Positions 13,220 to 17,000 of a DNA stretch of 64,000 bases are shown piece after piece (the first letter of the stretch is position 1; every line of letters begins with the position of its first letter). Made by a program: the position numbers and the translations under genes. Source of the DNA: Escherichia phage vB_EcoM-BECP11; the sequence record MW286157.1, one strand, 5' to 3'. Under the pieces are notes generated by a model that saw only the letters and a program-made list of their open reading frames with translations, searched no databases and was not told the DNA's origin.

Positions 13220-13999
13220 TTATACTCTTGGACCATATATTGCTCCAACGTTTTGCCATGTTGGAGCTGATCCTGCTACAGCAGCACCAGGACTTGTCGG
13301 AGGTGTTGAATAACCAGCACCTGGATTAGCATATTGTCCTGGCTGACCAACTTCACCACCTCCACCTGCATAATACCCTGTACCAGTATTACCGCCAGCA
13401 CCCGGAGACGTCAAACTAGCATTACCACCAGGCCATCGAGCACCATTATTTCCGCCTAAGCCGAATGGACGACCGCCACCGCCACCACAAACATATTTTC
13501 CCGCCCAGTTGTTGGCTTGTGAATAACCACCGCCGCCACCGCCGCCACCGGCAATAGCTCCGCCATTATTAATTCGCAGACGTCCACCTATATCATTCTG
13601 GATACATACGCCGCCATCAGATGCCCCAATTGCACCAGCGGCCCAACCATTCCCACCACGACCATACATCGTTACGCCGTGTATGTTCAGTTGAACGTAT
13701 TCATTAGGTGTATCTCCGTACATGAAGAATAAAGGAACATCTCTAGAATATGATACTAAATCTCCAGTAATATTAAACACTATAGGTGCACTACCTGCCT
13801 CAAAACATCTATCTCGGAACCATTGACCATTGAAGTTATGGTCTGCTCCAAGCGTGTGAATTACTTCAACAGATCGACCTATCATATTACTCATCCAGAA
13901 CGGAATGCCCATTCTTAATCGTTGGGCCGCGCCGCCCATCCAATTTTGTCCTGTATTAACTACTGCAGACGATCCTACCCACGGTCCTGCTACTGCCAT
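13220..13999 (-). CDS. 38: long tail fibre tip adhesin gp38, T2-type with glycine-rich motifs (259 aa)
   Basis: [13 protein letters not shown]... N-terminus, poly-Gly runs (GGGGGGGG, GGGGG) separating variable segments; GGAGG RBS 5 nt before ATG 13999 (the track start is an upstream TTG). Confidence 0.85.
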
Positions 14000-14011
14000 A
14001 TAAACCTCCAA

Positions 14012-14025
14012 GGGGCCGAAGCCCC
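14012..14025 (-). promoter_or_regulatory. intercistronic RNA hairpin between genes 37 and 38
   Basis: GGGGC-UUCG-GCCCC on the minus-strand transcript, immediately before the gene 38 GGAGG RBS. Confidence 0.55.
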
Positions 14026-14030
14026 TCTTA

Positions 14031-17000
14031 TTATTTTAACAATGATTTAACTAATGCTTTAAGTTCTTCAATTTCTGATTTAAGTTCCGCAATTTCTGCA
14101 GTATGCTCATTGATTGCAGCTGTATTTAAACCAATTACACCGTTATAGTTCAAACGAAGTAAAGCTTCGCCATCAGGGTCACCTTCAACTAATTCAGGCA
14201 AAATAGCTTGAACTTCTTGAGCTATCAAACCGGCGTTAGGTTCCCATTTCTGATTGCCTTCTTCATCTAGGCCTCGCTTCTGCATATAAGTGTAACCGTT
14301 AATTTTTGAAAGTGTTTGTGAAGCATTTTCAAATTTAACAAGGTCTTTTTTAACACGAATATCAGAACGGACATAAACATCGCGGACATATGTGGAATAA
14401 CTGTCATTCGTCTGGACAAGATGGCCGTGAGAAATAATTGCTTTGCCAACTTCTGTCCAAAAAGCTCCATTTGAATCCCAAAGGCCAGGATGAGAATGAT
14501 AAGATGAAGACCACGAAGCAATATGCGCTCCATTTGCAACCATATTGATTCGGCCGTCACCACCATGAACTAATCCAGTATCATTATCACCAATAACAAG
14601 ACACGGGCCGGTCCATACAGGGTCACCACCGCCAGCTGATAATCTTGCTCCAGCTTGAACCATATTAGGAGCATACAGAACTCCATTGTGGTGAAATTCA
14701 TAGATAGCTTGTGGGTCAGAACCATTTTCCTGGTTACCAACACGGATAATAGCCTGAGCCCATTGGTTAGTAGTGCGTCGCATACCAAAATCAACACCCG
14801 ATATGTATCCTTCATTAGTAATACCAGATTTTCCTTTGATAATCGGGTAATAACTATCATTACCGACATTGCCAAAATCTACAAATATTGGCGCTTCTTG
14901 TCGCCATTGGTTTCCCCAATCACCAGCTTGGTGCGCAACCCATTGTGTACCGTTTATATGAAGGCGATCTCTATTAAAATTAAATGTTCCTTGACCTTGA
15001 GGAGAAAGCGATATTTCGCCGTTATTTGTTATGTATACACCGCCTTGTGTAATGTAACTATAAAAACCTAGACCATTGTCGCCGCCGCCTTTGCCTATAT
15101 ACCAGTTACCTGTACCACCTACATCACTACGGATATGTGATGAAGCACCTTCGCCCGCAGTTAAAATGAGAGCATCATTGCCTGCCGATAAAGTCAATTT
15201 ACCAGTCATCGTGTCGCCTTCTTTAGAAACACGAGTAGCTATTGCATCGCGAATATTTGTGGTTTCTCCCGCAGAAGTAAACGATTTCCAAATATCTGAG
15301 AAAATATTACCATTACGAGCAATAGTAGCTTCACCGCCGCCAACTTGAACGTTATCGGGGAAATTAACTGTACCATCAGCATTAAATCTTGATGTATGGC
15401 CTTGTGAACCATCTTCTTTCAAATGATGTAAAACAAATGTACCAGAATTAATTTCAGTACCTAAAGACCAAACGGCTTTACCGTTTAAAAACTTCTGTTT
15501 AACAATAGGATAATATTTGCTTACAGCAGCATCATCGATTTCTTGGAAAATAGGAGCAGCTTGTGAATACTGAATATCATAACCACCGGCACCAGCCCCA
15601 TGACCAGCAAATTTAATATAACCATTTGCAGCGAACGTATTATAACTTGACTGTAAATCTGGAATAGTAACTTTACCGGAATTTAAAGCTACGCTGAGAG
15701 GACGTAAAGGCCCAATATCACCGGTTTCTCCTTCGCCAAATGCTGTAGGAATAATATGAAGACTTTCTTCTGAGCGTCTAAAAATAACTCCGTAATCATT
15801 GTTCCAAATACGAAGACCATTAACAGCATTTGTAGTGATTTCGCCAATGGTATGAACTGCTCGGTCAACCCAAATATCCTTTTTCGCAATAATATTTTCA
15901 TTAATTGTTTGTTGACCATTTAACACGGCTTCAACCGTATTATCTTTATTACGTTGAATATAATGCATCCATCCAATATCATCAGAAATTTCCATGACAT
16001 TTTTACGGGTGCCTTCACTTGGATTAGTAAAAGTATTTCCCCAAACAGCTATATACATGTTATCAACGGAGCTTTGACCCATGGTATAGCCTTTAAACAT
16101 TAAAGTTGAATTATTATTTCTACCATCGATATTAACAGAACCACCAATAACGTCAATATTGCCTGGAGTAACTAACAAACCGCCATGAGTATTAATGTTT
16201 GTAGTGCCCTTGCCGCGGAAATAATGATGATAGTTACCGCCTTGATAATATCCTAAAAGAGTCTGACCATCCCCAAACGCGTTATTATCATGGTATGTCA
16301 CTACAGTAGCAAGAGCATAATTTTCAGTTGGAGGAGTAGTTAAATCGGTTCCGTTAGTAGAATATCCAGCTATAAATTTTCTTAGGCTAGTTGTTTCGCT
16401 TGGACTAAATAAAAACGTTTTTGTGCCATTGTTAACACTGAAATAATATCCGTCTTGATGCCATTTAAATCCAGTATCATTATCTCCTAAAGCGATACTA
16501 GACGGTCCTAATATTGAGTAATCCTTAGTTCCGGGTGTTAAACCGATGGAAATTGAGTGACTTGATTTAATTCCGCCGCTCCAAGTAAATGACCAAAGAT
16601 AAGCGTCTAATCCATCTCCACTATACCATGTTATTCCATCATTATCTTTAACTTCATGGAAAATACCAGAACCAACTGCATTACGCATAACACGAAGATG
16701 ATTAATAGCAGTAGTGCTTTCAGACAATGGAACATTGTCTGCCATCGAATAGATGTCATAATCATCTTTAACTTTTTTATTGGTGATAACTTTATTGGTA
16801 TAAATTACCGGAGTTGATACAGATTTCCACCCAAAAACTTCTGGTGAAGAAAACAAACCATTTCCATTAAAAGCGAAAGTGCTTTCTGAACCGGCTTTGT
16901 AATCTTGAACTCTGATGTTAATTACTTGTGTAGTTAAACCGTCATTAGCAGGAGAAAAAATAATACCGCGTTCACGGTCGGCGGAATCATGAAAACGAAC

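Follow-up and report, generated by a model that had tools for sequence, protein, structure and literature searches.

Genes and features of the locus

The minus strand of the window, as the whole 64,000-nucleotide stretch of Escherichia phage vB_EcoM-BECP11 DNA is called here (MW286157.1), carries gene 36, gene 37, gene 38 and the holin gene t in 5′ to 3′ order. Positions 13220–14450 span the whole of gene 38 together with 139 codons at the 3′ end of gene 37. The features are as follows.

18049..18056, minus strand: late promoter motif of the T4 type, TATAAATA, 24 nt 5′ of the gene 36 ATG (exact match)
17369..18025, minus strand: gene 36, connector of the distal hinge, attached to the N-terminus of gp37 (Pfam Phage_T4_gp36, E 1.6e-28)
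14031..17360, minus strand: gene 37, distal subunit of the long tail fibre, 1109 aa, precursor of 120.2 kDa (ORF; Pfam Peptidase_S74 and Gp34_trimer)
14034..14366, minus strand: gp37 C-terminal intramolecular chaperone (Peptidase S74), residues 999–1109, 111 aa, 12.3 kDa (Pfam PF13884, alignment, AF2)
14349..14366, minus strand: SDIRVK motif with the predicted catalytic dyad (Ser999 codon 14364–14366, Lys1004 codon 14349–14351)
14012..14025, minus strand: GGGGCUUCGGCCCC tetraloop hairpin, directly 5′ of the gene 38 Shine-Dalgarno (sequence and fold)
13220..13999, minus strand: gene 38, adhesin of the T2 type at the tail-fibre tip, 259 aa, 26.1 kDa (ORF with ATG start; Pfam GP38 and Gp38_N)
13880..13999, minus strand: gp38 N-terminal attachment domain, residues 1–40 (Pfam Gp38_N; W7, W20, W35)
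13223..13663, minus strand: gp38 polyglycine-II sandwich specificity domain, about residues 113–259 (glycine-rich motifs alternating with receptor loops)
13628–13645, minus strand: gp38 loop A (this and the following loops by the PP01 loop definition, PMC12892980)
13490–13519, minus strand: gp38 loop B
13433–13450, minus strand: gp38 loop C
13373–13390, minus strand: gp38 loop D
13307–13327, minus strand: gp38 loop E
12533..13189, minus strand: gene t, holin, directly downstream of gene 38 (Pfam Phage_holin_T, E 5.9e-117)

Open reading frames and Pfam matches thus bear out the original prediction, made from the letters of the DNA, that a 259-aa gp38 accompanies a gp37 with a C-terminal S74 domain. 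Both protein sequences are present in GenBank under the phage vB_EcoM-BECP11 (QQM15651.1 for gp37 and QQM15650.1 for gp38), in each case labelled 'hypothetical'; a literature search on the name BECP11 found no paper. The program-made list of reading frames begins gene 38 at a TTG within the hairpin, four codons farther upstream. The ATG start, which gives 259 aa, is adopted because the Shine-Dalgarno sequence GGAGG (14005–14009) lies ahead of it and because the annotated PP01 and AR1 genes have the same length.

The TATAAATA motif before gene 36 is likely the start of a late 36-37-38 transcript, its putative promoter function being modelled on T4 biology. There is no exact copy of the motif on the minus strand between this site and gene 38. 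A late promoter directly before gene 38 was therefore rejected, as the nearest minus-strand TATAAATA precedes gene 36. A scan for the sigma-70 consensus performed no better than shuffled sequence (20 found, 19.6 expected in shuffles). Rfam gave 0 hits and ARAGORN 0 tRNA genes in the 64 kb, and neither search found structured RNAs, introns or tRNAs that would alter the reading of the locus.

The gap between genes 37 and 38 is 31 nt long. Its UUCG hairpin is also found in PP01 and AR1 and is absent from T2, T4, T6 and S16. The z-score against shuffles is only −1.66 (61-nt context), the coding strand continues into the gene 38 ribosome-binding site and there is no T-run; a terminator was accordingly rejected. 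The element is treated as a T4-style UUCG intercistronic hairpin.

The gp38 adhesin and its receptor

At the amino acid level, gp38 matches two family profiles over their full lengths: GP38 (PF05268; E 5.8e-72, 242.5 bits, profile positions 1–218 of 218) and Gp38_N (PF21721; E 2.7e-21, 75.7 bits, positions 1–40 of 40). The curated cut-off is 25 bits for each, and the scores, like that of gp37 given below, are far beyond chance. The protein also matches S16 gp38 in the crystal structure (6F45_D) at E 1.9e-52. The gene for this adhesin directly follows gene 37, whose product has a predicted cleavable C-terminal domain. Three tryptophans in the N-terminal region, W7, W20 and W35, are invariant in the gp38 of the window, PP01, AR1, T2, T6 and S16. 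[quoted passage not shown]

Glycine makes up 24% of gp38 overall and 32% of residues 110–259, the highest share among the 41 reading frames in the window with 150 aa or more; the runner-up has 12%. Glycine runs include G151–G158 and G172–G176. Conservation along the protein is low in five segments (residues 120–126, 160–170, 185–191, 205–206 and 221–237). These were computed independently and coincide with the crystallographic loops A–E of PP01 gp38 (PMC12892980), while the glycine runs are invariant. The original description of gp38 as an adhesin of the T2 type, its variable segments separated by glycine-rich motifs, is thus accurate.

The crystal structure of the PP01 gp38 receptor-binding domain (PDB 9V85) displays a polyglycine-II sandwich with loops, and the domain crosslinks to OmpC (PMC12892980). 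Residues 37–259 of the window protein are identical to 9V85 at 221 of 223 positions. The two differences, S237N and P257S, are both outside the loops. Loops A–E are identical to those of PP01, as are the functionally tested residues Y159, K168, Y169, G208, Y209, A228 and Y230. The predicted receptor is the OmpC of the O157 type. The proposal that gp38 determines host range is likewise upheld, on the strength of published work with near-identical proteins.

Could the differences from PP01 direct an otherwise identical module to OmpA, OmpF, Tsx, FadL or LPS? Few substitutions can shift gp38 specificity, the Ox2 host-range mutants cited in PMC12892980 being an example; S237N is six residues past loop E; and loop B of PP01 gp38 may also touch LPS (PMC12892980). 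Nevertheless, a receptor other than O157-type OmpC is improbable, given that the five loops and every residue tested by mutagenesis are unchanged, that the gp38 proteins of T2 (OmpF/FadL) and T6 (Tsx) are only 48% and 63% identical, and that receptor use is the same among closely related gp38 proteins (PMC12032242). The O157-type OmpC remains the predicted receptor.

The gp37 C-terminal chaperone

The Peptidase_S74 profile (PF13884) matches gp37 residues 999–1058 with E 4.6e-12 and 46.5 bits, where the curated cut-off is 22 bits, and covers profile positions 1–57 of 58. Upstream of this domain the protein consists of tail-fibre shaft sequence homologous to the gp37 of T4, AR1 and PP01. Ser999, Asp1000 and Lys1004 are invariant in alignments of nine and ten sequences that include relatives down to 28% identity; the search with the chaperone fragment returned only 14 proteins, a sample that served to align the dyad but was too small for a wide survey. 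The SDIRVK motif also aligns with ADLRAK of the MyRF ICA domain and with SDERLK of the 8jov tail fibre.

The C-terminal region can be aligned, with E 4.4e-37, to the chaperone of S16 gp37 as present in the 6F45 construct, and the S16 cleavage site DLNVS^SDRRIKK stands opposite DVYVR^SDIRVKK. S16 gp37 is cut at the equivalent S^SD site, releasing 113 residues (PMC7917993), and the gp37 proteins of T2 and T6 undergo proteolytic cleavage and are then capped by gp38 (PMC3157838). By analogy, cleavage is predicted between Arg998 and Ser999, which would leave a mature gp37 of residues 1–998 (108.0 kDa). Release of the chaperone by autoproteolysis after trimer folding would likewise follow the S16 and T2/T6 precedents.

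An AF2 monomer model of the chaperone has a pLDDT of 80.6 and places a C-terminal helix at model residues 89–125 (gp37 1072–1108). Foldseek pairs the model with the MyRF ICA domain (7dc3; E 1.7e-6, TM 0.69) and with the endosialidase chaperone (3gw6; probability 0.98), so the predicted fold agrees with that of solved S74 domains, in which short helices and a β-hairpin precede a long C-terminal helix. The proposed S74-like chaperone with its Ser-Lys dyad is therefore recovered by profile, alignment and model alike.

It is very improbable that the S74 domain has decayed to a remnant that either stays on the mature fibre or is cut away by a protease other than gp37 itself. Self-cleavage of this particular gp37 does rest on homology, and Arg precedes the predicted scissile bond where S16 has Ser. 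However, R-SD also occurs at the site in T2, T6, PP01 and AR1, and T2 and T6 gp37 are processed. In addition, the catalytic residues are invariant and the Pfam profile is matched almost end to end. The domain is 97–100% conserved among AR1, PP01 and the window while the flanking sequence drifts, which argues for purifying selection on the domain. A working, self-cleaving chaperone is thus the preferred reading of the gp37 C-terminus.

Proposed mode of action

The locus is very probably the module by which a long tail fibre of the T2 type binds its receptor, in a Tequatrovirus of the AR1/PP01 group, a group with E. coli O157:H7 as its host. No sequence evidence contradicting this explanation was found.

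Genes 36, 37 and 38 would be expressed late. Three gp37 chains would then form a β-helical fibre, with folding nucleated by the C-terminal 111-residue S74 chaperone. After trimerization, Ser999, activated by Lys1004, would cut the Arg998-Ser999 bond, and departure of the chaperone would expose a hydrophobic gp37 tip. A single gp38 monomer would cap this tip through its N-terminal helical domain (W7, W20, W35), and to judge from the homologues it would be a virion component present at a gp37 to gp38 ratio of 3:1. The capping protein would display five loops on its polyglycine-II sandwich. In O157-type OmpC, the cleft that separates extracellular loops 5 and 7 may receive loop E, with support from loops B and D.

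The opposite arrangement, in which gp38 is a T4-type assembly chaperone outside the virion and the gp37 tip reads the receptor, has the gene name and position in its favour, T4 also having a gene 38 after gene 37, but its probability is close to nil: a BLASTP comparison of gp38 with T4 gp38, an unrelated chaperone of 183 aa that is absent from the virion (PMC6851490), gave no hit at E 1e-3, so that a T4-type gene 38 is rejected at the sequence level, and gp38 belongs to the Pfam GP38 adhesins, is 99% identical to the crystallized OmpC-crosslinking domain (PMC12892980) and follows a gp37 that has its own chaperone domain in place of the T4 needle tip. The adhesin reading of gp38 is retained in what follows. 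Neither finding named beforehand as a refutation of the original prediction, a gp37 without the Ser-Lys dyad or a gp38 of the T4 chaperone type, emerged from the comparisons.

Mosaicism

The locus was also proposed to be a recombination hotspot. This holds for the locus as a whole, but not for the gp38 specificity loops within the clade, which show at least 97% DNA identity. The mosaic blocks within the clade are found elsewhere: in the gp37 shaft, in the gp37 tip (residues 961–1000, 75–78% identical to PP01 and AR1) and in the gp38 N-terminal attachment region (13850–13999, 85–93% DNA identity among the window, AR1 and PP01). The conserved chaperone block (residues 1001–1109, 95–100% identical among the window, AR1 and PP01) sits between the diverged gp37 tip and the diverged gp38 N-terminus, two partners that touch in the assembled fibre. 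Because gp38 residues 9–20 and the gp37 tip both differ from those of PP01 and AR1, the fit between gp37 and gp38 in this phage is assumed.

Perhaps the chaperone block acts as a homology 'landing pad' for exchange of adhesin cassettes, with the tip and the attachment domain co-varying to remain compatible. This is an unlikely proposal, offered as speculation. If it were true, the interface between tip and adhesin in this phage would be a variant that follows compatibility rules of its own. Even so, the 'landing pad' would add detail to an existing idea, that conserved motifs serve as sites of recombination, rather than define a new kind of system. Such recombination was reportedly described by Tetart in 1998 and by Trojet in 2011.

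Significance

Two genes that GenBank labels 'hypothetical' in vB_EcoM-BECP11 can be annotated with confidence. A specific receptor is also predicted, O157-type OmpC recognized via its loops 5 and 7. This is useful for the choice or engineering of phages that target E. coli O157:H7, as well as for anticipating resistance via ompC mutations.

Comparison with known phages

For near-identical or homologous proteins, publications already cover the overall architecture as well as the chaperone that cleaves itself off, the polyglycine fold of the adhesin and its contacts with the receptor, and the interpretation is textbook knowledge for T2, T6, S16, AR1 and PP01. In a locus comparison, the window has the gene order 36-37-38-t-asiA in common with all five. 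Roughly 100 phages cover the 36-37-38 region.

T4 resembles the window in locus position and flanking genes, and its gp37 is 32% identical over window residues 1–745, the proximal two-thirds. The alignment ends at residue 745 (T4 residue 811). T4 gp37 has no S74 domain, its C-terminus lacks an SDxRxK motif, and it terminates in a His-rich receptor-binding needle. By BLASTP, the window shows neither of the two marks of a T4-type distal fibre, gp38 homology and the His-rich gp37 tip. The original statement that the locus is unlike T4 is correct on both counts.

T2 and T6 share the gene order, a gp37 with an R-SD-x-R-L-K site and an S74 domain, and a gp38 adhesin with glycine-rich motifs. The gp38 loops of both differ from those of the window, as do the receptors, and the T2/T6 chaperones are only 28–33% identical to that of the window, that of S16 being closer at 55%.

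S16, a Salmonella phage of a different genus (Gelderlandvirus), has the same architecture, in which a gp37 trimer with a self-cleaving chaperone carries one gp38 by means of three tryptophans (PDB 6F45; Dunne et al. 2018). S16 gp38 is also a polyglycine-II sandwich with five loops and its receptor is also an OmpC, but the protein is 48% identical and the loops are different. S16 gp37 is much shorter (749 aa), and its cleavage site reads S^SD as opposed to R^SD.

AR1 (AP011113, AF208841), which shares the host group E. coli O157:H7, has a gp38 that is 98.5% identical, with an Arg in loop D where the window and PP01 have Gly208. This G208R change suggests that small loop changes are tolerated in the clade. 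AR1 gp37 is six residues shorter and 91% identical; its first 400 residues are 95–100% identical, and it differs in the gp34-like knob (residues 401–560, 45–82% identical) and at the tip.

PP01 has a gp38 of the same length (259 aa) that is 96.5% identical overall (Terasaki et al., mBio 2026, PMC12892980), with IGTSALAQTGDH at residues 9–20, where the window protein has other residues. Its gp37 likewise has 1109 aa and an identical SDIRVK site, and the gene order and gap hairpin are alike. Overall identity to PP01 gp37 is nevertheless just 85%, and it falls to 52–78% in the blocks of residues 121–360, 401–560 and 961–1000. When placed on T2 gp37, PP01 gp38 is functional only after a swap of its N-terminal 113 residues.

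Gene organization and putative transcription signals

The tail-fibre locus has the gene order of T2, T6, S16, PP01 and AR1:

17369–18025, minus strand: gene 36
14031–17360, minus strand: gene 37 (distal subunit of the long tail fibre), 1109 aa
31 nt: gap between genes 37 and 38
13220–13999, minus strand: gene 38 (tail-fibre tip adhesin), 259 aa counted from the ATG
12533–13189, minus strand: holin gene t
after gene t, opposite strand: asiA, arn and motA

The range originally predicted as a receptor-binding module, 13220–14450, encompasses all of gene 38 and the final 139 codons of gene 37, and the gp37 peptide quoted with it is found in the open reading frame, with Ser999 and Lys1004. 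A mechanical ORF list starts gene 38 at a TTG located within a hairpin, four codons upstream of the ATG. The ATG has GGAGG upstream (14005–14009), and its 259-aa product has the length of the annotated PP01 and AR1 proteins.

By exact look-up, gp38 and gp37 are residue-for-residue QQM15650.1 and QQM15651.1 of Escherichia phage vB_EcoM-BECP11, both labelled 'hypothetical protein'; the phage name was not found in the literature searched. Several related records label gp38 'distal long tail fiber assembly catalyst', 'assembly chaperone' or 'tail protein and peptidase', which are annotation errors inherited from T4 nomenclature. At the nucleotide level, the 4.9-kb locus has matches in 733 phage records. 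The closest (98–98.6% identical) are the T4-like E. coli O157 phages Ec_O157kw, KMB42 and G157lw, and identity is 94% to AR1 and 88% to PP01.

An exact late-promoter motif, TATAAATA, is present at 18049–18056 (minus strand) before gene 36 and a second at 23116–23123 before gene 34; no exact copy was found nearer gene 38 than the first. Genes 36–38 would probably be transcribed late. Two C(UUCG)G tetraloop hairpins are found in intercistronic gaps of the operon (minus strand). That at 14012–14025, in the gene 37/38 gap, abuts the ribosome-binding site of gene 38 on the 5′ side and is shared with PP01 and AR1, but is absent from T2, T4, T6 and S16. After the other, at 18063–18084 in the gene 35/36 gap, come a T-rich tail and the 18049–18056 motif. 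The hairpins may act in RNA stability, processing or termination.

The gp37 C-terminal chaperone

The C-terminus of gp37 is an S74 intramolecular chaperone, as had been proposed. Pfam Peptidase_S74 matches residues 999–1058 from profile position 1 (E 4.6e-12; 46.5 bits, cut-off 22 bits). Over its final 139 residues, gp37 can be aligned with the C-terminal end of the S16 gp37 construct in 6F45, the gp37–gp38 complex (E 4.4e-37). Weaker alignments are obtained with the MyRF ICA domain and the 8jov phage tail fibre; in these, SDIRVK of gp37 aligns with the dyad motifs ADLRAK (MyRF crystal construct) and SDERLK (8jov). The Ser–Lys dyad, whose absence would have counted against the proposal, is present: two alignments, which take in gp37 of T2, T6 and S16 as well as metagenomic S74 proteins with identity down to 28%, show no variation at Ser999, Asp1000 or Lys1004. 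With Foldseek, an AlphaFold2 model of residues 984–1109 (pLDDT 80.6) was matched to the MyRF ICA domain at E 1.7e-6 and TM 0.69, and to the endosialidase chaperone 3GW6 with a probability of 0.98.

The S16 chaperone comprises the final 113 residues of gp37 and is cleaved at DLNVS^SDRRIKK (PMC7917993). The aligned site in gp37 is DVYVR^SDIRVKK, and thus a mature protein of 998 residues (108.0 kDa) and a released fragment of 111 residues (12.3 kDa) are predicted. The protein was correctly described as unlike that of T4, because the alignment with T4 gp37 covers residues 1–745 only, and the T4 protein has an unrelated, His-rich tip at its end.

The gp38 adhesin

Judged from its sequence, gp38 belongs to the T2-type adhesins. 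The Pfam GP38 profile is matched over its full length (E 5.8e-72), and Gp38_N is matched as well (E 2.7e-21). Comparison with the T4 gp38 chaperone (183 aa), the competing identity, detected no similarity. Glycine makes up 24% of the protein and 32% of residues 110–259, the highest content among the 41 window ORFs of at least 150 aa (the runner-up has 12%).

In a search of solved structures, S16 gp38 (6F45) was matched with E 1.9e-52, and 9V85, the PP01 gp38 receptor-binding domain (PMC12892980), is identical to residues 37–259 at 221 of 223 positions. The two differences, S237N and P257S, lie outside the PP01 loops, which are A 119–124, B 161–170, C 184–189, D 204–209 and E 225–231 (PMC12892980). 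All five loops are identical in sequence and numbering, the last being NPGAGYS, and all residues implicated by crosslinking or mutagenesis are present (Y159, K168, Y169, G208, Y209, A228 and Y230).

Alignment with T2, T6 and S16 (48–63% identity) delimits five variable segments, 120–126, 160–170, 185–191, 205–206 and 221–237. These coincide with the crystallographic loops and are flanked by invariant glycine runs, which bears out the predicted separation of variable segments by glycine-rich motifs. W7, W20 and W35, invariant in all six sequences compared (this phage, PP01, AR1, T2, T6 and S16), are counterparts of the three S16 gp38 tryptophans that dock onto the gp37 trimer (PMC6851490).

Mosaicism

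Sliding identity to PP01 and AR1 across the locus
Flanking genes, DNA: mostly 96–99% to PP01/AR1
13220–13849, gp38 body and loops, DNA: 96–100% to PP01/AR1
13850–13999, gp38 N-terminus, DNA: 85% PP01, 93% AR1
14000–14299, distal part of chaperone, DNA: 97–99% to PP01/AR1
14300–14899, gp37 just before cleavage site, DNA: 81–89% to PP01/AR1
15650–16087, central gp37 block, DNA: 43–79% to PP01/AR1
gp37 residues 121–360, protein: 62–78% PP01, 95–100% AR1
gp37 residues 401–560, protein: 45–82% to PP01 and AR1 alike

These identities mark the locus as clearly mosaic, in line with the literature. The parts seen to be shuffled within the AR1/PP01 clade are the shaft and the gp37–gp38 interface, not the specificity loops. 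The proposed recombination hotspot thus holds for the locus, and the family-wide pattern fits, but not for the gp38 loops within this clade. A gp38 match was obtained in 882 phage records; in most of them the alignment is confined to the N-terminal 142 residues, owing partly to the BLAST low-complexity filter.

Residues 418–567 of gp37 (15660–16109, minus strand) form a knob domain homologous to the gp34 C-terminal trimerisation region. It matches Pfam Gp34_trimer and gp34 structures 4UXE and 5NXF, and is 34% identical to residues 950–1101 of the same phage's gp34. Its divergence from AR1 and PP01, the greatest within gp37 (45–82% amino acid identity), suggests a swapped module.

Proposed mechanism and receptor

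By analogy with S16, T2 and the S74 family, the chaperone domain would nucleate folding of the gp37 beta-helix trimer and then remove itself via Ser999–Lys1004. One gp38 would bind the exposed gp37 tip by its tryptophan prongs, as in 6F45. Since the gp38 loops are identical to those of PP01, loop E may likewise enter the cleft between loops 5 and 7 of O157-type OmpC. Published phylogenies point to a common receptor for gp38 proteins that are close relatives (PMC12032242); together with the loop identity, this leads to O157-type OmpC as the predicted receptor, with the loop-7 GVIN insertion expected to be required. From its homologues, the phage is expected to have a self-cleaving gp37, to carry gp38 in the virion and to depend on OmpC.

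Other features of the window

Tandem Alt-type ADP-ribosyltransferase genes are found at 47316–49409 (plus strand, 697 aa) and 49413–51470 (plus strand, 685 aa). Both proteins match Pfam ADPrib_exo_Tox and they are 42% identical to each other; T4 matches part of the first gene only. The alt and alt.-2 pair occurs in 278 phage records, RB32 and RB18 among them, and is ordinary for the group.

Thymidylate synthase (29119–29979, plus strand, 286 aa) and the ribonucleotide reductase small subunit (32853–34031, plus strand, 392 aa) are uninterrupted open reading frames. Across the whole 64 kb, no RNA family was detected with Rfam, group I introns included, and no tRNA with ARAGORN. T4 has introns in td and nrdB, which this phage appears to lack.

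Relation to known systems

The gp37–gp38 module is real, was rightly interpreted and is already known, every element having a published counterpart. In practice, it allows two proteins labelled 'hypothetical' to be better annotated and a specific receptor to be predicted. The T2-type adhesin concept is said to stem from work of Riede, Drexler and Henning in 1985–1989, and the polyglycine sandwich and self-cleaving gp37 chaperone were reportedly described by Dunne in 2018 with structure 6F45. The layout in which glycine-rich motifs are arranged with hypervariable segments is that of Trojet (2011; PMC3157838), and an OmpC contact map has been published for a 99%-identical gp38 domain (PMC12892980).
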